Shown piece by piece: positions 24,156-35,444 of a DNA stretch of 64,000 nt. Source of the DNA: Dehalococcoidia bacterium (GTDB lineage: Bacteria; Chloroflexota; Dehalococcoidia; Lucifugimonadales; UBA3495); the NCBI GenBank assembly GCA_965262485.1, contig OZ253540.1, positions 532,711 through 596,710 on the forward strand, written 5' to 3'. Position 1 is the stretch's first letter; every line of letters starts with the position of its first letter. The notes below the pieces were generated by a model. It made no database searches and was not told the origin of the DNA. It was given only the letters and a program-made list of their open reading frames with translations. Both the position numbers and the translations under genes were made by a program.

Positions 24156-24356
24156 TTAACTCTCGATGTAGGTGTTTGGCGCCGCCAGGAACTTGGTGCG
24201 GCACTCAAGGCTACAGAAATAATACCACTCACCGTTGTGGAAACTACGGGTGCCGGCGGTCGGATCGACTTCATTGGCGCCGTGCATGGTCTGCCCGGTC
24301 GTGGCGCGGGCGTTATCTTCGTTGATTTCGGACTTGCAAACGGGATCAACGGGCAT
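24156..24356 (-). CDS. YHS-domain protein
   Basis: 66 aa with DPVC...GEWYYFCSLECRTKFLAAP, a YHS/TRASH-type motif. Confidence 0.75.
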   Translation of the reverse strand: MPVDPVCKSEINEDNARATTGQTMHGANEVDPTAGTRSFHNGEWYYFCSLECRTKFLAAPNTYIES

Positions 24357-24397: not shown

Positions 24398-25573
24398 TCA
24401 GGCAACGGGTTCCAGGTTCATGCCGAGGCGCACCTTGCCCGGCTGATCCAGCAGGGCGCGGGCGACACGAGCGCGGTGTTCAAAACTGGTACCCATGCGC
24501 ATGGTCCAGGCGGTAACGCGCCGGTACCAGAGGTGCAGGTCGAACTCCATCATAAAGCCGATTCCGCCGTGGATTTGCTGGGAGGAGCGCACCGTAGCCT
24601 GGCATTTGTCATTGGTGAACGCTTTGGCCTGGGAAACTTCCACTGCATAGGGTAGTCCCTGGTCCAGCTTCCAAAGCGCCTCGTAGGTCAACAGCTGGGC
24701 GCCGTCGCACCAGACCACCATATCGGCGCAAAGGTGCTGAATGGACTGGAACCCGGCGAGAGGCCGCCCAAACGCAACGCGGTTCTTGGCGTATTCGATG
24801 GCCATTTCCGCATCCTTGCGGGCCGCACCCACGATCTGGGCGCACAGCAGGGCAGTGCCGATGTCCAGCATCTCCTGGGTGAGTGGCCATCCCTGGTTTA
24901 TCTCACCGATGATGTTGGAGAGGGGGATTCGCACGCCTTCGAGGTTCAGTTTGCTTTGCGAGTCTTTGGCCAGAGTGGTAAGCCGTGTTTCCTGGATGCC
25001 TGGCGCGTCGGTGGGCACGATGGCAAGTGTTATCCCGGCGTTGGTATCACTGGGAGGCGCAGTGCGAACTGCGACGACCATCAGTTCTGCCGCTGAAAAG
25101 TTGTCCACAAAGTGCTTGATGCCATTGATCACCAGACTGTCGCCGTCCACCTCGGCCCGGCATTGCACGGCATCGGCACGAAGGCGCGGGTCCTGTTCCT
25201 GGACAGCCCAGGTCATTATCAATTCGCCGCGCGCGACCCGAGGCAGGAACGATTCCTGTTGCTGTGGGGAGCCGAATTTGGCCAGCGCCAGCGCAGCGGT
25301 GGACGTGGAATGCAGGGGAACCGGAGCAATGGCCCGGCCGCACTCTTCTATGATGAGCCCCAGGTACGTTACCGGAAGGCCGCCACCCCCGTAGGCTTCG
25401 GGAAGGGAGATGCCGAACCAACCGAGAGCGGCCATCTTCTCCCATAGCTCAACCGAGTAGCCGCGCTCGTCCTGCTCCACCGCGCGAGCGAGGCTGGGCG
25501 GGCATTCTCCGTCCAGAAACTCGCGGGCGGCGTTTCTAACCATTAGTTCTTCTTCGGTGGGGAGTACGTTCAT
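24398..25573 (-). CDS. acyl-CoA dehydrogenase family protein
   Basis: 391 aa with ACAD N/M/C layout, ..QIHGGIGFMMEF.. near the C-terminus, and a GAGG RBS. Confidence 0.9.
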   Translation of the reverse strand: MNVLPTEEELMVRNAAREFLDGECPPSLARAVEQDERGYSVELWEKMAALGWFGISLPEAYGGGGLPVTYLGLIIEECGRAIAPVPLHSTSTAALALAKFGSPQQQESFLPRVARGELIMTWAVQEQDPRLRADAVQCRAEVDGDSLVINGIKHFVDNFSAAELMVVAVRTAPPSDTNAGITLAIVPTDAPGIQETRLTTLAKDSQSKLNLEGVRIPLSNIIGEINQGWPLTQEMLDIGTALLCAQIVGAARKDAEMAIEYAKNRVAFGRPLAGFQSIQHLCADMVVWCDGAQLLTYEALWKLDQGLPYAVEVSQAKAFTNDKCQATVRSSQQIHGGIGFMMEFDLHLWYRRVTAWTMRMGTSFEHRARVARALLDQPGKVRLGMNLEPVA

Positions 25574-25638
25574 TGTGCCTCAGTGTGGTGGGATTCGAGC
25601 AAATCGTGGGGCGTACTAGCGAGGCGGTATGACGACAT

Positions 25639-26016
25639 TTAACCGCCGGCAGGCCGATTCACGAGCCCTCTAATCAAGTTCACAAACCTTTCTACGTCAT
25701 CCAGATACTCCGAGATACTACTTGCATCAAGCACGTCGCGATAGAAATTGCGATGCAGCTCGTTGGCACTTCTAGCCCAGCTATGCACTTCATTACGGCC
25801 GGTTTCCCTAGCTATTCTCGACACGACTTCGGCCTCAAACTCCCAATGCTCACGATAGCTCCACTCACGGGCACTGGCGATAACCGTAGCAGCGTGGGCA
25901 GCAGCCCCCCAACCTTTTTCGGAAGCCTGCAATAGCCCCCCGTTGGCCAGATATTCCCGGCTGCGGCGTAGAAATTCAACGCAAATTCGGTCATGGTCGG
26001 ACTCAAATTCAGGCAC
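25639..26016 (-). CDS. PaREP1/HEPN-like single-domain protein retaining an Rx5H motif
   Basis: 125 aa with FLRRSREYLANGGLLQASEKGWGAAAHA... and WARSANELHRNFY. GTG start 8 nt after the stop of the upstream paralogue. The family call comes from motif memory. Confidence 0.6.
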   Translation of the reverse strand: MPEFESDHDRICVEFLRRSREYLANGGLLQASEKGWGAAAHAATVIASAREWSYREHWEFEAEVVSRIARETGRNEVHSWARSANELHRNFYRDVLDASSISEYLDDVERFVNLIRGLVNRPAGG

Positions 26017-26024
26017 CGTTCATC

Positions 26025-26753
26025 TCAGCTAGTATGCTTCTGCCGTGTCAGTTCTTTTACCAATGTGATGAATTTTCCGGATACATTAAGGTCTTCACTG
26101 ACCAAATCGGCGTCCAACCAGTTTCGTCTGGGGTCTGTGTTTTCCAGAAGGTTTAGCGCCCTCAATGACCAAACGCCAACCTTACTTCCCCCAGGTTCTT
26201 TCATCAGTAACGGTGTGACTTGGTCGAGGTAGTTGCCACGGATGTAGTCGTAGCCCATGGCTTCCGCATAAGTTTTGGCGGCGTAGGTAACTGCGTCCCA
26301 ACCCTTTTCCGCCGCCACTGCCAACGCCCCGTTTGCCAGGCATACCCAGGCGCGGCGTAGTATTGCTTCGGCGTCTTGCGGTGGGTTGGCGATGTCAAAA
26401 ACCAGCATAGCCAGCCGCTGCACATCGTCAAAACGCCGGCCGACACCGCTCCTGTCCAGCCAGTCATAACGCGCATTGTCGGCCAAAGCCATTGCGCTCA
26501 CCGCCCACTCAACGCTACTGTCGTGGCTGCGGTGGTCTTTGGACAACTGCAATACCACATCCTTGAAATCGGCGTCGCTGCCGCCTTGTCCGATAAGGCC
26601 GGCATAAGTTTTGGCGGCGTAGCCGGCGGCATCCCAGCCTTTGGCAGAGGCCAATGCCGGTTCACCCTGGGCCAGGTATTCCCGGCCCCGGCGCAGGAGT
26701 TCGTCGCAGGTTTGGGTATAATCGTGTGGCAACTGCGTCATCGTACTGGCCAC
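26025..26753 (-). CDS. tandem PaREP1/HEPN-like protein (two degenerate domains lacking the R/H motif)
   Basis: 242 aa with LLRRGREYLAQGEPALASAKGWDAAGYAAKTYA and ILRRAWVCLANGALAVAAEKGWDAVTYAAKTYA. The positions equivalent to R..H read VSAMALA and LRALNLL. The start is GTG 26753 or ATG 26741. Confidence 0.6.
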   Translation of the reverse strand: MASTMTQLPHDYTQTCDELLRRGREYLAQGEPALASAKGWDAAGYAAKTYAGLIGQGGSDADFKDVVLQLSKDHRSHDSSVEWAVSAMALADNARYDWLDRSGVGRRFDDVQRLAMLVFDIANPPQDAEAILRRAWVCLANGALAVAAEKGWDAVTYAAKTYAEAMGYDYIRGNYLDQVTPLLMKEPGGSKVGVWSLRALNLLENTDPRRNWLDADLVSEDLNVSGKFITLVKELTRQKHTS

Positions 26754-26755
26754 AA

Positions 26756-27958
26756 TTAGACCCGCGGCATGCCCAGTCCCCGGCGGGCGACCTGGTCTCG
26801 CATGACCTGGACGCTGCCGTGGTTGATGCCGCTCTGGAAAGCGCCCATCAGGTTGTGGGCAAAAATGCCGTCTGCCACGGAATCCTCGGAGCCGTTGAGC
26901 AACTGGCCGTAGGGACCCAGCAGTTGGGCGATGGTTTCTGTTGTCCGAACACCGTGTTCGGGAGCAAATACCTTCTCAGCCGATCCTTCGTAGGTGAAGT
27001 TACCTTCGGATTCGACGATGGACATGCTGCGCAGGGTCATCAGCCGACACACCTGACCTTCGATCCACATATCTGCGAGCCGGTCGCGGGTGGTGGGGTC
27101 TTCGCGCATACCGTAGCCCTCGATGTCGTTTTCCTTTACCCAGTTTACGATGTCCTCATCGCGCTGGATGGAAATCAAGTACCGCGATGCGCCGACGCGG
27201 TCGAGGTTGAGTCCCATTGCGCCGACGTACCAGCCCTGGTTTTCCTCTCCCAACAGGCACGAAGCTGGCACACGAACATTTTCGAAGAAGGTTTCGTTGG
27301 TGCGGGCGTCGCCGTAAGTTGTTCCGAGGGGAGCCGGAGGATTGTTCTGGATGGTCCACAACGGGCGGACGGTGATGCCGGGGGTGTCCATGGGTATGAG
27401 GAATATGCTGATTCCCCGGTGGCGCGGGGCGTCAGGGTCGGTGCGCGCCATCAGGTAGATGTGAGTTGCGTAGTGCGCGGCCGTTGTGTACATCTTCTGG
27501 CCGTTGATAACGTAATCGTCGCCATCGCGGACGGCGCGGCACTGGAGACCGGCGAGGTCGGCGCCCGCTTGGGGCTCGGTAAATCCCAGAGCAAAGGAAA
27601 TTTCGCCACGAATTACACCGGGGATGAATTCCTGCTTCTGCTCCTCGGTTCCCGCTGCGAGTATCGCCGGCGCGCCGGAACCGGCTCCGCCAACGGTGAT
27701 GCCAATGCGGGCAAACTCCTCTTCCACGATGTATTGGTCGATTCGACTGCCGCCCTGACCGCCGTATTCTACGGGCCAGGAAATGCCTATCCAACCCTGC
27801 TCGGTGATTTTTTGGTACATCTCCCGGGTCTTCGGGCCCCGTCGGCGAATTCCGGTGCCCTCCAACTCGGCTACGATATCGTCAGTCACATTTTCAGCAA
27901 TGAACTGCTGCACATCGGAGCGTAGGGCTTCCTGTTCGGTAGTGAATGCAAATTCCAT
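26756..27958 (-). CDS. acyl-CoA dehydrogenase family protein
   Basis: 400 aa with ACAD layout (MEFAFTTEQEALR...FTEPQAGADL...). Confidence 0.9.
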   Translation of the reverse strand: MEFAFTTEQEALRSDVQQFIAENVTDDIVAELEGTGIRRRGPKTREMYQKITEQGWIGISWPVEYGGQGGSRIDQYIVEEEFARIGITVGGAGSGAPAILAAGTEEQKQEFIPGVIRGEISFALGFTEPQAGADLAGLQCRAVRDGDDYVINGQKMYTTAAHYATHIYLMARTDPDAPRHRGISIFLIPMDTPGITVRPLWTIQNNPPAPLGTTYGDARTNETFFENVRVPASCLLGEENQGWYVGAMGLNLDRVGASRYLISIQRDEDIVNWVKENDIEGYGMREDPTTRDRLADMWIEGQVCRLMTLRSMSIVESEGNFTYEGSAEKVFAPEHGVRTTETIAQLLGPYGQLLNGSEDSVADGIFAHNLMGAFQSGINHGSVQVMRDQVARRGLGMPRV

Positions 27959-28105
27959 GGCGGCGCTGCCTCACGGGTAGGGTGTGCGGTACTTTACTGG
28001 CGTCCAATTATAACGGTTAGCCCGGTTGGTGTCATTTCGGAAAAATGGGTTCTGCCGGCCTTGTGCTAAAATCGCGTCAACCCACTACTCATATTGAGGC
28101 TTACG

Positions 28106-28876
28106 ATGAGCACCGCGGCCAATGCAATCACGATGCTGCCCTACCGGCGGCAGGGGGAAATTGACTACGCCAGCCTTGAATACGACCCCGATGAACCGGA
28201 ACCTTTGCCCGAAGCTATGGAACAAGAACCCGTCATACAGGAAATCCTCGGTATCATCAGCAGTCGGTTCACCGATTTCGGGCTGCGCCCGGATAACTTT
28301 CTCAGCAGCAATACTATCCTCTGCTATGACCCGGCCAATCTCAATGTGCGAGTGCAACCCGACATATACCTGGCTTTTGGGGTTGAGCAGGCGGCCATTC
28401 GCCGGCGGAAGCTCTACCTGCCTTGGGAAGCCGGCAAGCCGCCAGACCTGGCGTTGGAGGTAGCTTCTGAAAGCACCAGCCGACAAGACATCATCGCCAA
28501 GCCGGGCATCTACGCTGCCGTCGGCATTCCCGAATACTGGCGCTTTGACCCGACCGGGGGCGAGTATCACGGTGAGCCGATGGCCGGGGGCTTGCTGGTC
28601 AATGGTGCCTATCAATCCATTGAACTGACCACCGAACCCGATGGCATATTGAAAGGATACAGCACGATACTGGAACTCAGCCTGTGTTGGGATGAAGGCT
28701 GGCCGCGCTTTTACGACCCGGCCACCGCAACCTACCTGGAAAACTGGCGACAAGAGCGGGCGGCCCGGCTGTCTGCCGAGGCGGAGCGGGATGCTGAAAG
28801 AGCGGAACGCCTCGCCGCCGAGACCGAAAACGAGCGGCTACGGGAACAGATACGCCGTCTGCAATCAGAAGGATAG
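28106..28876 (+). CDS. Uma2-family (DUF820) PD-(D/E)xK endonuclease with C-terminal coiled coil
   Basis: PDLALEVASESTSRQD...KPGIYAAVGIPEYWRFDP and an Ala/Glu/Arg-rich tail. ATG 28106 follows GAGG by 6 nt. Confidence 0.8.
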   Translation: MSTAANAITMLPYRRQGEIDYASLEYDPDEPEPLPEAMEQEPVIQEILGIISSRFTDFGLRPDNFLSSNTILCYDPANLNVRVQPDIYLAFGVEQAAIRRRKLYLPWEAGKPPDLALEVASESTSRQDIIAKPGIYAAVGIPEYWRFDPTGGEYHGEPMAGGLLVNGAYQSIELTTEPDGILKGYSTILELSLCWDEGWPRFYDPATATYLENWRQERAARLSAEAERDAERAERLAAETENERLREQIRRLQSEG

Positions 28877-29138: not shown

Positions 29139-30989
29139 TCACCCCAGCCCGCACTCCGCCAGCACCGGTTCGATGGCTCCGATCAGCGCTGGCAGGTATT
29201 CGTTCCAGTCTCCCACGATTCCATAGTCGGCGGCCCGAAAGATGGCAGCGCGATGATTGCGGTTGATCGCCAGGATGACCCCGGCTTTTTGAATTCCCAC
29301 CGTGTGGTTGAAGGCGCCGCGAATTCCCACGGCCAGGTATACCCTGGGGGCTATCGTCCGACCGCTGATGCCGACCTGGACGTGATGAGGCAACCATCCG
29401 GAATGCACGACGTTTCGAGTGGTTGCGATGGAGGCGCCGATGGTGGCAGCCAGGCGTTGGGCTTCGGCCAAACCTTCTTCGCCCACGCCCATGCCGACGC
29501 CGATCACGACTTCCGCGGATGTTAACTCCAGGGCTCCATGTTCTTCTGACGTATGCTCGCTCAACAGGATGACGTCCGGCCCGTCGCAAGGGGCTGGATC
29601 TATGGCGGTAACTGTCGGGGTGTAATCCGGATCCGGGTCGGCGGGGGTCAGGACGCCGGGCCGGAGCGTTACGAGGTTGGGCAACGTTTTGGAAAGAATG
29701 GGAGCAACGACGTTGCCGCCGAGGGCCGGTTTGAGTTGGACCAGTTGCCCGGCGTCGTTGATTTCCAGGTCTATGGCGTCACCGGTCAGTCCCAAACGTT
29801 GCCGGGCGGCAATGCGGGCAGCGAGGTCGCGTCCATCGGCGGTGGCACAAAAGAGCACTGCGTAGGGCGGGTTGGCGACGATGGCGGCAGATAGACTCTC
29901 AGCGACGCTACGCCCGCAGATTACACCCAGACCATCTGTATTCAGGGTCAAAATTCGGTCGGCGCCCGCGGCAGCCAACTGAGTAACGGCTGCCCCGTCC
30001 GGCGGTCCGGATCCGATGAATACGGCCACGATCTCACTTTGCGTTATGGGAGCAAGGGCGCGCGCTTTGCCGAGCATTTCCAGCGTAGCGTGACGCACGG
30101 CCGGTCCGACCATTTCCACGACTACCCAGATACTGCGTTGGGTTCCGGTGTAACGGCCGGGAGCGGACACCGTTGATCCGGTTGAGTCTTCCGCCTGATC
30201 CAGCGCGGCCAGACGTTCGCGGAGCATTTCTGCCACCTGGCGCGCAGCATCGTCGGGCGTTTCATCGCGGATTACCACACCCAGGCGGTCCGGTTCAATC
30301 AGACGAATGTCTTCAACCCAGGTGGGTGACCCTTCCAATCCGAACAACGACAGGTCATCCGTCAGGTCGGCACAGGTTAGTTGCTCCACCGTTTTTGTCT
30401 CAGCGACTTCCATTTCCTCGCGCCCGGGATAACGCTCCTGCCCGGCGCCTTCCGTTACGCACACGACGGCGGGCAGGGAGCAGCGCAATACCTGATAACC
30501 TTGATCGGTGGCCCTTTCGCAGGTAATGCTGTGGCCGGATCGGTCGATCTCGAGATGCCGGACATTGCTGATGTGAGGCATCCCCATCAGTTCCGCGACC
30601 TCGGGACCGACCTGACCGGTTTCGGCGTCGGTGCTGTTGCGCCCGCAGATGACAAGATCGGGTTCTTCGCGCTGCAAGGCCAGAGCCAGAGCCTGGGCCG
30701 TTGCCAGGGTATCGCTGCCGGCCAGCGCCCGGTCGGAAAGTAGAATTGCCCGGTCGGCCCCGAGGGCGTGGCACTGAGTCAGTCCCTCAGCTGCGTTTGG
30801 CGGGCCCATGGACAGGGCCACCACCGAATCATCGGGATCAGATTTCAAGTCTATGGCGAGGTTGAGACCCAGCAGATCGAAGGGGTTTATTTCTGATGGC
30901 ACGCCCTCGCGCTGGATTACCTTATTTTCGTAATCGAACTGGATTCTGGAAACGACGGGGACATATTTGACGCAGACCGCGAATTTCAT
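29139..30989 (-). CDS. fused electron transfer flavoprotein, EtfB-EtfA in one polypeptide
   Basis: 616 aa. The N-terminal ~255 aa are EtfB-like (MKFAVCVKYVP...INPFDLLGLNLA...). After a short Ala/Asp/Ser linker, the C-terminal ~330 aa are EtfA-like (...PRVYLAVGIRGAFNHTVGIQKAGVILAINRN...). AAGGAG RBS. Confidence 0.85.
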   Translation of the reverse strand: MKFAVCVKYVPVVSRIQFDYENKVIQREGVPSEINPFDLLGLNLAIDLKSDPDDSVVALSMGPPNAAEGLTQCHALGADRAILLSDRALAGSDTLATAQALALALQREEPDLVICGRNSTDAETGQVGPEVAELMGMPHISNVRHLEIDRSGHSITCERATDQGYQVLRCSLPAVVCVTEGAGQERYPGREEMEVAETKTVEQLTCADLTDDLSLFGLEGSPTWVEDIRLIEPDRLGVVIRDETPDDAARQVAEMLRERLAALDQAEDSTGSTVSAPGRYTGTQRSIWVVVEMVGPAVRHATLEMLGKARALAPITQSEIVAVFIGSGPPDGAAVTQLAAAGADRILTLNTDGLGVICGRSVAESLSAAIVANPPYAVLFCATADGRDLAARIAARQRLGLTGDAIDLEINDAGQLVQLKPALGGNVVAPILSKTLPNLVTLRPGVLTPADPDPDYTPTVTAIDPAPCDGPDVILLSEHTSEEHGALELTSAEVVIGVGMGVGEEGLAEAQRLAATIGASIATTRNVVHSGWLPHHVQVGISGRTIAPRVYLAVGIRGAFNHTVGIQKAGVILAINRNHRAAIFRAADYGIVGDWNEYLPALIGAIEPVLAECGLG

Positions 30990-32808: not shown

Positions 32809-32950
32809 AACCCTTATCCAGAGAGGCGGAGGGACCGGCCCTGTGAAGCCTGGCAACCAATCCCGCATCCCTAGCGGGATCAGGTGCTAAATCCGGCGTC
32901 GCTGCCGGGCGTTGCGAGACGCTCGCTGTAGATCGGCGAAAGATGAGGGG
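32809..32950 (+). promoter_or_regulatory. SAM-I (S-box) riboswitch aptamer
   Basis: CCCTTATCCAGAGAGGCGGAGGGACCGGCCCTGTGAAGCCTGGCAACC...GGTGCTAAATCCGGCG...GAAAGATGAGGGG matches the S-box core (CTTATCaAGAGnGGnGGAGGGAnnGGCCCnnTGAAnCCnGGCAACC..GGTGCnAAnTCC..GAAAGATGAG). The P1 stem pairs 32811-32818 with 32942-32949. A T-run lies at 32989-32998. Confidence 0.9.
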
Positions 32951-33067
32951 AGGATTGTCTCGCTTGGCTCTCCCTATGCGGATGGGCCTTTATTTTTTGC
33001 CTGTCGCGGCGATGGGTATCGTCGAACCGACAGGCTGCGGACTACCGCAACTGGCGTAATTGTGGCT

Positions 33068-34111
33068 ATGAAAGAAATTCGTCCGATAAATTGGACGGGC
33101 AGTCGTTTGGAATTGTTGGACCAAACCCGGCTACCTCACGAACAGGTAACGGTCAACATTAGCGATTATCGCGTGGCGGCTGCTGCCATAACCGATATGC
33201 GCGTACGCGGCGCCCCGGCCATCGGCGTTGCCGCCGCCTATGCGATGGTACTGGCGGCGGCGGAGTTGCAGTCGCGAGAACGCGATCACTACATTGGTTC
33301 GCTGCGTCAGGCAGGGTCACAAATTTCTGCCGCGCGGCCAACAGCCGTCAATCTGGGCTGGGCGGTGCGACGCATGTTGCGCGTTGCTGAAGCCGAACCC
33401 GATCCGGGCAGCATTTTGCCTAAACTGGAAGCGGAGGCGCGGCGAATCCAGGCCGAAGATGAAGAAATCAATCGGCGTATCGGAGAGCATGGGCGTGTGC
33501 TGATGCCGCAAGATGGCGAGGGCGTGTTGACGCATTGCAACACTGGCGCGCTGGCGACCTCGGCTTTTGGCACTGCTTTGGGCGTGATTCGAGCCGGATG
33601 GGAAAATGGCGGCAGATTTCGGGTTTACAACACCGAGACGCGACCCTGGCTGCAGGGAGCGCGTCTCACATCATGGGAGTTTCAGCAGTTGGGTATTCCA
33701 GCGACGCTCATCGCTGATTCCGCTGCTGGGATGATGATGTTGAACGGTGATATAGCGTGCGTAATAACCGGCGCGGACCGGATTGCCGCCAACGGCGACA
33801 CCGCAAATAAAATCGGCACCTATGCCCTGTCGGTTTTGGCTCATGAAAACGGCATCCCGTTTTATATTGCAGCGCCCACCAGCACTGTCGATCTGTCGGT
33901 TACAGACGGTTCCGGCATCAAGATCGAACAAAGGCCGCAGCATGAAGTTACGTCTTTTGCCGGCGTGCCAACTGCTCCCGAGGGGACTGCTGCCTACAAC
34001 CCCGCTTTTGACGTAACCCCCAACCGCTACATCACCGCCATCATCACCGAGCAAGCCGTTTGCCGCCCACCCTACGACGCCTCACTCCGCCAAGCCGTGG
34101 ACGCTGCCTGA
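33068..34111 (+). CDS. mtnA: S-methyl-5-thioribose-1-phosphate isomerase
   Basis: MKEIRPINWTGSRLELLDQTRLPHEQV...RVRGAPAIGVAAAY...GADRIAANGDTANKIGTY. The upstream part of ORF 32912.. is the riboswitch. Confidence 0.9.
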   Translation: MKEIRPINWTGSRLELLDQTRLPHEQVTVNISDYRVAAAAITDMRVRGAPAIGVAAAYAMVLAAAELQSRERDHYIGSLRQAGSQISAARPTAVNLGWAVRRMLRVAEAEPDPGSILPKLEAEARRIQAEDEEINRRIGEHGRVLMPQDGEGVLTHCNTGALATSAFGTALGVIRAGWENGGRFRVYNTETRPWLQGARLTSWEFQQLGIPATLIADSAAGMMMLNGDIACVITGADRIAANGDTANKIGTYALSVLAHENGIPFYIAAPTSTVDLSVTDGSGIKIEQRPQHEVTSFAGVPTAPEGTAAYNPAFDVTPNRYITAIITEQAVCRPPYDASLRQAVDAA

Positions 34112-34565: not shown

Positions 34566-35444
34566 ATGCCCAATCACCCCCAGGCAGAAATAGCAATCAT
34601 CGGCGGCAGCGGTCTCTATGAGATCCAGGGGTTTAATGAATCCGCCGTCGTTGACATCGACACGCCGTACGGTAAGCCCAGCGACTTCATAACCGTGGGT
34701 GAGTTGCTGGACGTGCCGGTAGCATTCCTGCCGCGCCACGGAAGAGGCCATCGAGTGAGTCCAACCGAGCTACCGTTCAGGGCCAATATCTATGCGTTGA
34801 AAATGCTGGGCGTAAAACAGATAGTGTCAGTGAGCGCGGTTGGCAGCCTCCAGGCGAGGTTTCAACCGCAACACCTGGTGGTGCCCGATCAACTCATCGA
34901 TCGTACCCGTTTTCGCGACAGCACTTTTTTCGAGGGCGGCGTGGTGGCTCACATTACGTTTGCAGATCCTTTCTGTCCGGCCGTGAGCAACGCCATCGCG
35001 GTGGGTGGGGATGGGCAGGGCATTCCTACGCATCAGGGTGCGACGCTGGTGGTGATGGAAGGCCCGGCGTTTTCAACCAAGGCCGAATCCGAAATGTACC
35101 GGGCCTGGGGCGGCGACTTGATCGGAATGACCGCGTTACCAGAAGCCAAGCTGGCCCGCGAAGCAGAAATGTGCTACGGAACCATGGCCTGGGTAACCGA
35201 CTATGACTGCTGGCATCCCGACCACGACGCGGTGACGGTGGACATGGTAGTGGAAAACCTGATTGCCAACATCGCCAACAGCCGGATTATTCTCCGCCAC
35301 ATCGTGCCGGCCCTGGCGCAACTCGGCCCGTGCGAGTGCCAAACTGCATTGGCCAACGCCATCATTACTGACAAAAACCATATCTCCGACGAGGCACGCC
35401 GGCGCCTGGAACCCATCGCCGGCAAGTATCTGAACCTGCGTTAA
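34566..35444 (+). CDS. mtnP: S-methyl-5'-thioadenosine phosphorylase
   Basis: IAIIGGSGLY...TPYGKPSD...FLPRHGRGHRVSPTELPFRANIYALKMLGV is typical of MTAP. Confidence 0.9.
   Translation: MPNHPQAEIAIIGGSGLYEIQGFNESAVVDIDTPYGKPSDFITVGELLDVPVAFLPRHGRGHRVSPTELPFRANIYALKMLGVKQIVSVSAVGSLQARFQPQHLVVPDQLIDRTRFRDSTFFEGGVVAHITFADPFCPAVSNAIAVGGDGQGIPTHQGATLVVMEGPAFSTKAESEMYRAWGGDLIGMTALPEAKLAREAEMCYGTMAWVTDYDCWHPDHDAVTVDMVVENLIANIANSRIILRHIVPALAQLGPCECQTALANAIITDKNHISDEARRRLEPIAGKYLNLR

Follow-up and report, generated by a model that had tools for sequence, protein, structure and literature searches.

The PaREP1/PaREP8 proteins are described as an archaeal, thermophile-centred family of the HEPN superfamily, expanded in Crenarchaeota, occurring in tandem gene arrays and unlinked to MNT nucleotidyltransferases (Anantharaman et al., 2013, PMC3710099; Makarova et al., 2013). 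Under the name HEPN-T (Parep1/8) the family is listed with the remark 'Lacks R but H is conserved', other conserved basic residues being considered as possible substitutes (Anantharaman et al., 2013, PMC3710099, Table 1), and it has been placed among the HEPN conflict domains with no known partner, leaving open a toxin with 'a still unidentified antitoxin' (Makarova et al., 2013). In Pyrobaculum, paREP1/8 genes are associated with variable or indel regions of the genome. Here we describe a two-gene PaREP1 locus in a 64,000-nucleotide stretch of a Dehalococcoidia bacterium (assembly GCA_965262485.1, contig OZ253540.1, positions 532,711 to 596,710; the whole stretch is referred to as the window), in which a 242-aa protein of two fused PaREP1-like domains (the tandem protein) and a 125-aa single-domain PaREP1 protein (the short protein) are encoded between two acyl-CoA dehydrogenase (ACAD) genes, termed ACAD_up and ACAD_dn.

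The locus resembles PaREP1/PaREP8 (PF05942; structures 2q00/2jpu from Sulfolobus solfataricus) in its Pfam match and five-helix fold, in the combination of a non-conserved Arg with a conserved His, in the multiple copies with gene arrays and in the lack of a link to MNT. Unlike the described members, it belongs to a large bacterial expansion (Dehalococcoidia/SAR202-like Chloroflexota and Acidimicrobiia sponge symbionts), it combines a canonical gene with a degenerate paralogue of two fused domains and lacks an RHH fusion, and the pair is a hypervariable cassette inside a metabolic operon.

Regarding other HEPN systems, HepT-MntA (HEPN-MNT), in which the partner enzyme AMPylates the HEPN toxin, shares with the window locus the HEPN fold and the co-directional two-gene module; the window locus, however, has no nucleotidyltransferase partner, its Rx4H is not conserved and its partner is itself a HEPN paralogue. 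The HepT structures 7bxo and 6m6u were weak Foldseek matches of the short-protein model (E 0.55-0.75, TM 0.52-0.58). Cas13 contains an intramolecular HEPN pair, while Csm6/Csx1, Las1 and RNase L/Ire1 are HEPN dimers with a composite site. The tandem protein is like the two-HEPN chain of Cas13 in that it is confidently predicted to pack two HEPN-like bundles in one chain, but in this window both of its domains lack the conserved His residues of the family; if the His is catalytic, the fused protein would be a pseudo-enzyme, leaving any activity to the single-domain protein encoded beside it. An antitoxin homologous to part of its toxin exists in HipS of HipBST, which offers an analogy alone, the kinase fold and chemistry being unrelated. 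Literature searches found neither a described HEPN system with a HEPN paralogue as partner nor a description of a bacterial PaREP1 expansion or of a canonical gene paired with a degenerate tandem. An earlier note on this DNA, made from the sequence alone, knew of no toxin-antitoxin (TA) or defence type with this architecture.

Family assignment and conserved residues

By BLASTP the short protein is 34% identical to each half of the tandem protein (E 1e-17 and 6e-14) and the two halves are 33% identical to one another (E 1e-14), which is well beyond chance and bears out the earlier claim that the three encoded domains are paralogous. The Pfam profile PF05942 (PaREP1) matched the short protein with 58.2 bits and the tandem protein, in two stretches, with 28.3 bits, the gathering threshold being 24.4. 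AlphaFold2 models built on family alignments have five helices for the short protein (pLDDT 93.0) and ten helices, arranged as two bundles, for the tandem protein (pLDDT 92.7, pTM 0.89). Comparison of the short model with the PDB by Foldseek gave as top match 2q00, the sole PaREP1 structure (TM 0.76-0.79), and next the AF0298 HEPN protein 2hsb (TM 0.81), with further matches to ST0689 (1wol), TM0613 (1o3u), 4nqf and the HEPN domain of sacsin; the four-helix up-down core of the HEPN fold was thus recovered in the short model (2hsb, 1wol, 1o3u, 4nqf and sacsin; TM 0.64-0.81). Each tandem half matched 2q00 (TMt 0.72-0.75), 2hsb and 1ufb. A sequence search of the PDB was marginal, returning 2jpu at E 0.57 and a designed protein that shares the word LRRSREYL; it took the fold comparison to establish the connection. 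Since the Pfam scores, the AlphaFold2 models and the Foldseek matches agree, the PaREP1 and HEPN identity that the earlier note had recognised can be regarded as secure for both proteins at the level of profiles and predicted structures.

Residue conservation was viewed in 43 aligned homologues and then tallied over 121 sequences (71 orthologues and 50 paralogues). The invariant or near-invariant positions of the family are S32, E33, K34, G35, W36, G37, H57, L87, H88, N90 and Y92; the SEKGW motif is essentially invariant, as are N90 and Y92 of the LHRNFY motif, and H57 and H88 are conserved in 121 and 118 of the 121 sequences, respectively. Judged by these alignments, the 125-aa protein is a canonical family member with the invariant polar set S32-E33-K34-G-W36, H57, H88, N90 and Y92.

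A HEPN-style Rx5H signature had earlier been read in the short protein. The stretch WARSANELHRNFY occurs there and the His of the signature, H88, is conserved, but the Arg is not: 38 of the 71 orthologues have R at position 82 and the others N, E, D, K, S or T, while R is seen there in no paralogue of the 50, which have G, Q, H, S and other residues. The signature is therefore not a conserved one, and the R-x5-H of the short protein is no evidence of a canonical HEPN RNase site.

The tandem protein reads LADNAR (N-domain, 26469-26486) and LLENTD (C-domain, 26133-26150) at the positions aligned to LHxNFY, so that both halves have lost both aligned Rx5H residues, as had been claimed, and the degeneracy also holds against the true family invariants, H57, H88 and Y92 being absent from both halves in this window. 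Over 48 tandem orthologues, the N-domain keeps G-W alone of SEKGW and has a conserved block of its own (EW.VSAMAL.DN..YDWLD..G..RRLDDVQRL), and conservation within the protein is highest over residues 80-165 (mean entropy 0.8-0.96). In the C-domain, (S/A)EKGW is retained and a few orthologues also have the His (MLHENA), whereas nowhere in the protein is variability greater than in the last three helices of this domain; it is the C-terminal half of the tandem profile that single-domain relatives match best. This pattern of conservation marks the tandem protein as a constrained, specialised pair of domains and not a decaying copy.

Insertion and hypervariability of the cassette

The two co-directional minus-strand open reading frames (ORFs) lie between the ACAD genes with exactly the coordinates and spacings given in the earlier note (Table 1). 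The ACAD_up stop codon (TAA, 26756-26758) is 2 nt from the GTG at 26753, the tandem and short genes are separated by 8 nt, and 65 nt separate the short gene from the start codon of ACAD_dn (ATG, 25573). The likelier start of the tandem gene is the in-frame ATG at 26741, which would give a 238-aa product, as all orthologues begin with MTQ. The GC content is 0.54 and 0.57 in the pair versus 0.60-0.62 in the ACAD genes, and GC3 is 0.53 in the short gene and 0.64 in the tandem gene versus 0.71-0.73, so that computation confirmed the AT-richness that had been estimated by eye. A consensus scan for promoters and terminators returned site counts no higher than in shuffled sequence, the sole strong site being a promoter-like one upstream of ACAD_up; because the scan found no comparable promoter site or terminator inside the cassette, the pair probably shares a transcript with the ACAD genes.

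For an outgroup comparison, metagenome contigs were scanned with ACAD_up, which gave about 25 loci at 50-85% identity with downstream DNA present. Across these loci (e.g., L082, L083, L086, L111 and L121) ACAD_dn directly follows ACAD_up, with a gap of 0-165 nt or with overlapping called ORFs, and the order electron transfer flavoprotein (ETF) gene, ACAD, ACAD, luciferase-like monooxygenase (LLM) gene is the same, with PaREP1 genes absent. A neighbour-joining tree of ACAD_up unites the 15 pair-bearing loci in one clade, the nearest outgroups (L081 and L111) being without the pair. Since the outgroup ACAD genes are adjacent and the pair-bearing loci monophyletic, the insertion into a pre-existing operon, which the earlier note had proposed, is by this comparison real and happened once, the module having entered the ACAD pair at the base of one Dehalococcoidia clade (SAR202-like, marine or sponge-associated). 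Searches around the cassette for direct and inverted repeats and target-site duplications returned short repeats at chance level plus the expected paralogy repeat D1; a transposon-like insertion signature was rejected, there being no flanking repeats and no target-site duplication.

Regarding the flanking enzymes, Tcur3483 (6wy8/6wy9) and 4x28 are the best relatives of ACAD_up among solved structures, and ACAD_dn also matches the 6wy8 partner chain, Tcur3481. We take these relatives to be α2β2 heteromeric steroid-side-chain ACADs, and by analogy the cassette probably sits between the genes for two subunits of one enzyme. A location between two genes of a probably heteromeric ACAD, with which the pair is probably co-transcribed, would suit an accessory factor of the acyl-CoA operon that modulates the assembly, stability or mRNA processing of the enzyme, and so would a second single + tandem pair located between two CoA-transferase III genes and the enoyl-CoA hydratase (ECH), short-chain dehydrogenase/reductase (SDR), CoA-transferase or LLM genes that are often neighbours of PaREP1 paralogues. 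In all outgroups, however, the operon functions with the pair absent. Where the ACADs share 94-99% identity the pair shares about 50%, and there is thus no co-evolution; other pairs as well as solo copies are found in unrelated contexts. SAR202 genomes are very rich in acyl-CoA-type enzyme paralogues, and the neighbour pattern is expected by chance in genomes of this kind. A role as ACAD accessory is considered highly improbable.

Divergence within the cassette far exceeds that of its surroundings. Between the window and syntenic loci the ACAD_up, ACAD_dn and LLM flanks are 85-93% identical (dN 0.04-0.10, ω 0.03-0.11), ACAD_up being 92-93% identical across pair-bearing loci, while identity is 45-74% for the tandem protein (dN 0.17-0.50, ω 0.13-0.36) and 53-64% for the short protein (dN 0.21-0.46), rising for the latter to 89% in L161 (dN 0.06, ω 0.08). 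Cassette dN is 4-10 times flank dN, yet selection on the pair is purifying. Within the set L001-L004 and L007, flank identity is 94-99% (dS 0.22-0.46, dN 0.007-0.037) and cassette identity 47-72% (dS 0.7 to saturated, dN 0.16-0.45). The borders are sharp: in a sliding-window comparison of L001 with L004, nucleotide identity is 90-100% in both ACAD genes and, with an abrupt drop at the ACAD_up stop, 15-75% in the stretch that ends a few tens of nt short of ACAD_dn, and the similarity of the window DNA to syntenic loci breaks or drops within the cassette and resumes at 25581-25604. How similar two cassettes are does not follow from the similarity of their flanks (Spearman 0.01-0.32). Tandem and short genes are themselves weakly coupled: L006, for example, carries the tandem allele of the window (74%) but not its short allele (53%), the DNA alignment breaking in the 5' part of the short gene.

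Because cassette dS is several-fold above flank dS, the cassette alleles are older than the split of the genomes that carry them, and on these alignments the divergence pattern needs either allele replacement by recombination in the flanks or a long-lived polymorphism. As far as can be read from the borders, divergent alleles have been swapped in by recombination within the conserved ACAD flanks. Relaxed constraint was rejected as the cause of the divergence on account of the several-fold higher cassette dS and an ω below 0.4, and gene conversion from paralogues in the same genome was rejected as orthologues (at least 50% identity) are clearly apart from paralogues (at most 48%). A pair of about 50% identity between flanks of 94-99% identity represents an unusually clean allele replacement at a fixed site in a metabolic operon, and such cassette divergence usually marks genes under conflict-driven diversifying selection.

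An alternative is that the proteins are non-catalytic, non-toxic helical adaptors that bind a ligand, RNA or protein and form a benign hetero-oligomer, with weak constraint plus recombination accounting for their fast evolution. The missing canonical Arg, the absence of a known activity for any family member, the common solo copies, the long vertical retention under purifying selection and the lack of matches to defence models are all in keeping with such adaptors, although S, E, K, W, N, Y and two His form an invariant polar cluster indicative of a catalytic site or a specific binding site, the cassette dS of 3-10 times flank dS with sharp borders calls for allele replacement or balancing selection beyond weak constraint, and the literature puts the family with conflict systems. 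On balance benign adaptors appear unlikely.

Pairing, distribution and a possible mechanism

Outside the orthologous family, the pairing of single and tandem genes recurs. A profile of the tandem protein was searched against 1.84 billion representative proteins; five clusters alone were found below E 1e-30, all of them from the orthologous family, followed by a gap and then by unrelated two-domain PaREP1 fusions. Five of the eight unrelated fusions examined have an adjoining canonical single-domain PaREP1 gene on the same strand (Table 1), and no adjoining single-domain PaREP1 gene was found for P0204, P0187 (on a 1.8-kb contig) and the fusion in L044. The tandem is degenerate at LHxNFY or SEKGW in four of the five pairs and the single-domain gene canonical (QASEK.WGA ... 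LH.NFY); P0289 keeps both His residues yet has a single-domain partner, and owing to this exception a rule that fully degenerate tandems alone have a single-domain partner is not cleanly obeyed. Taken across these lineages, a canonical single-domain gene with a fused, usually degenerate tandem is, by gene content, a recurring two-gene module of the bacterial PaREP1 family. The window locus and the five other pairs offer a concrete, clonable candidate partner for an orphan HEPN branch, with K34, H57, H88, N90 and Y92 as candidate residues for mutation.

One of the unrelated pairs (L170/L171, 2613-3720) lies between two CoA-transferase family III genes in a cluster of ECH, SDR and hydrolase genes, an echo of the window placement between paralogous acyl-CoA enzymes that may be a coincidence in paralogue-rich genomes or may reflect an insertion preference.

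Within the orthologous family, all eight genome loci with a short protein at least 52% identical to that of the window have the tandem gene immediately upstream, and pair loci have in common the gene order ACAD_up - tandem - short - ACAD_dn - (YHS) - LLM; the same pair arrangement is present in L161-L163 and in the divergent tandem orthologues of L164-L166. Tandem and short genes co-occur in 15 of 15 loci (window included), with a spacing of -8 to +26 nt in orthologues. The two small genes, adjacent (8 nt), co-directional and co-conserved in these 15 loci, thus have the layout of a type II TA system, and the co-conservation expected by the earlier note was found. The patchy distribution that it also expected was not: every located tandem homologue is at one ACAD site in one clade, so that a patchy or mobile TA-like distribution is absent among them.

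Taken strictly, the TA interpretation of the earlier note would make the 125-aa protein a homodimeric HEPN RNase toxin and the fused, dead pseudo-dimer encoded upstream a labile antitoxin that blocks its dimerisation. One gene has the canonical domain and the other the degenerate ones, as such a system requires, the genes are tightly coupled and co-occur throughout, their hypervariability is typical of conflict genes, single + tandem pairing recurs, and an unidentified antitoxin for paREP1/8 has been left open (Makarova et al., 2013). Against this stand the non-conserved Arg of the Rx5H, the preponderance of solo genes among single-domain paralogues, the single-then-tandem order in four of the five other pairs and the fixation of the pair at one site in place of a patchy distribution; moreover, the tandem is a well-folded 240-aa two-domain protein (pLDDT 92.7) and not a short disordered antitoxin, and it has no DNA-binding domain, Pfam having found PaREP1 alone with no HTH, RHH or AbrB domain and the model consisting of all-helical HEPN-like bundles. 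We regard strict TA as rather unlikely.

Regarding distribution, homologues detected number 266 for the short protein and 61, of about 240 aa, for the tandem protein. A scan of species-representative genomes for the word QASEKGWG returned at least 596 stretches, with 587 confirmed loci, and among the best 80 several genomes hold two or three such loci each. The carriers are nearly all Dehalococcoidia, SAR202 or other Chloroflexota metagenome-assembled genomes, many of them sponge-derived, and a few are Acidimicrobiia sponge symbionts. Relatives at 41-44% identity were observed in L032, L051 and L075 in Acidimicrobiia sponge symbionts, including Candidatus Spongiisocius and Candidatus Poriferisodalis (Actinomycetota), and their similarity suggests PaREP1 transfer between phyla sharing the sponge habitat.

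With at least 587 QASEKGWG loci, two or three in several genomes among the best 80, copies scattered among unrelated genes, a GC3 of the pair below that of its surroundings and the association of paREP1/8 with indel regions, the genes could be seen as a selfish repetitive family like the paREP families of Pyrobaculum, their own mobility driving spread and replacement with no benefit to the host. Such a family would fit poorly with a cassette that has no transposase, terminal repeats or target-site duplication, with the failure to find plasmid or phage copies, with purifying selection and with fixation of the pair at a single site across the clade, and we consider selfish spread very unlikely.

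The reading that we favour, tentatively and at somewhat less than even chances, is a regulated hetero-oligomeric conflict module of two HEPN paralogues. The two proteins would act as a hetero-oligomer, which is suggested by the dimerisation of HEPN domains, by the covalent pseudo-dimer mimicking such a dimer and by the recurrence of the pairing in independent lineages. The fused pseudo-dimer would regulate the single-domain protein by occupying its HEPN dimer interface, either holding it inactive or targeting it, and the single-domain protein would be the effector, most likely RNA-acting through a His-dependent site without the canonical Arg. The decoy antitoxin of the strict TA interpretation would be a special case of such regulation. 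Such a module would serve intragenomic or host-parasite conflict (TA-like or defence-like) and not acyl-CoA metabolism, given the hypervariability, the literature placing PaREP1/8 among conflict domains and the association with variable regions in Pyrobaculum. A more specific form, in which the tandem pseudo-dimer is the cognate inhibitor or specificity subunit of the PaREP1 HEPN branch and its alleles are diversified by frequency-dependent selection and exchanged among marine Dehalococcoidia, is speculative and carries clearly lower odds.

Several observations weigh against the favoured conflict module. The Arg of the Rx4-6H motif of catalytic HEPN RNases is not conserved in the 121-sequence tally, and we know of no PaREP1 member with a demonstrated activity. 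Even between deeply diverged subclades (dS above 1) the pair keeps the same chromosomal site, unlike typical mobile TA loci, and the distance matrices of tandem and short proteins are weakly correlated (Spearman 0.28). Gene order varies between lineages, the single-domain gene coming first in four of the five other pairs; as single/tandem order is not fixed, the argument of the earlier note from an antitoxin-before-toxin order falls. Single-domain paralogues (at most 47% identity) are solo at 62 of 72 loci, the other 10 being arrays of two to four single-domain genes with no further loci having an adjoining PaREP1 gene, and when 280 neighbour ORFs of the 72 loci were clustered no family occurred at more than six loci and no recurrent partner emerged. 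An MNT partner was found neither at the window locus nor recurring beside these paralogues. With most paralogue loci solo, the single-domain protein cannot generally depend on a dedicated neutraliser, which weakens the idea of an obligate toxin needing an antitoxin. Database searches gave no support either: NCBIfam returned nothing significant for either protein, PADLOC-DB v2 had no match at E <= 1 to any known or candidate defence model, the sole PHROGs match, at E 0.0022 to a family whose function is unknown, was insignificant, and phage and plasmid collections searched by tblastn with the short protein returned no homologue.

Feature coordinates and neighbouring genes

Table 1. Positions of features of the PaREP1 locus in the window and, in the last five rows, unrelated tandem fusions with an adjoining single-domain gene.
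Feature	Position or locus	Strand	Remarks
Tandem PaREP1 protein	26025..26753	-	242 aa from GTG 26753; fused pair, degenerate HEPN-T/PaREP1 domains
Tandem N-terminal PaREP1-like domain	26388..26720	-	aa 12-122
Tandem C-terminal PaREP1-like domain	26031..26372	-	aa 128-241
Short protein, canonical single-domain PaREP1 (HEPN-T)	25639..26016	-	125 aa, GTG start; PF05942 full length
SEKGW motif of short protein	25909..25923	-	aa 32-36, start of helix 2
LHRNFY motif of short protein	25741..25758	-	aa 87-92
R82 codon of short protein	25771..25773	-	non-conserved
H57 codon of short protein	25846..25848	-	second invariant His
Hypervariable inserted cassette	25605..26755	-	ACAD_up stop to ~30 nt upstream of ACAD_dn
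ACAD_up, acyl-CoA dehydrogenase, upstream flank	26756..27958	-	three ACAD domains
ACAD_dn, acyl-CoA dehydrogenase, downstream flank	24398..25573	-	three ACAD domains
Promoter-like site upstream of ACAD_up	28007..28035	-	11/12 consensus matches; consensus scan alone, weak evidence
Tandem fusion P0185	L167		single-domain gene 48 nt upstream
Tandem fusion P0193	L168		single-domain gene 31 nt upstream
Tandem fusion P0224	L170/L171		single-domain gene 25 nt upstream
Tandem fusion P0209	L174		single-domain gene 14 nt upstream
Tandem fusion P0289	L173		single-domain gene 56 nt downstream

Upstream of the ACAD pair, the window has a 616-aa ORF (29139-30989, minus strand) that fuses beta-like and alpha ETF domains (two PF01012 stretches and PF00766), a position that is kept in the outgroups L085, L086, L088 and L111. 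The gap between this fused ETF gene and ACAD_up (28094-28876, plus strand) is a second variable spot. A putative endonuclease gene of the Uma2 family is located there in the window, L003, L006, L009 and L165, where an IS4-type transposase occurs as well; the Uma2 gene is fast-evolving (65-79% identity, dN 0.16-0.27). The gap contains an Eco57I-type methylase/restriction gene and a PIN-domain gene in L162 and L163, a solo PaREP1 gene with IS110 transposase fragments in L166 and pentapeptide-repeat genes in L164, and in the outgroup L111 it consists of about 320 nt alone. In L163 (4137-5246) the called ACAD_up product is cut short at 245 aa, and a 156-aa gene on the minus strand covers its 5' region; this locus has the same cassette and ACAD_dn as L162. 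Either a rearrangement at the upstream hotspot or an artefact of assembly could account for the truncation.

Downstream, a 66-aa YHS-domain ORF (24156-24356, minus strand) lies between ACAD_dn and the LLM gene and is kept in all pair-bearing loci (82-94% identity, ω 0.03-0.12). Beyond the LLM gene, L165 (9967-10693) and L166 (8908-9646) have a HepT-like (PF01934) gene overlapping an upstream 127-aa partner of unknown family, and the two may represent a HepT toxin and its partner; in the window this position is empty. The ACAD operon appears to be bracketed by accessory-gene hotspots.

Further along the window, a SAM (S-box) riboswitch (32811-32949, plus strand; 72.8 bits, E 4e-15) is located directly upstream of an IF-2B-family ORF (32912-34111), overlapping its annotated start. 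This ORF possibly encodes methylthioribose-1-phosphate isomerase; a gene of the purine/uridine phosphorylase family is next at 34566-35444, and the riboswitch and the two genes look like a methionine-salvage unit under SAM control.

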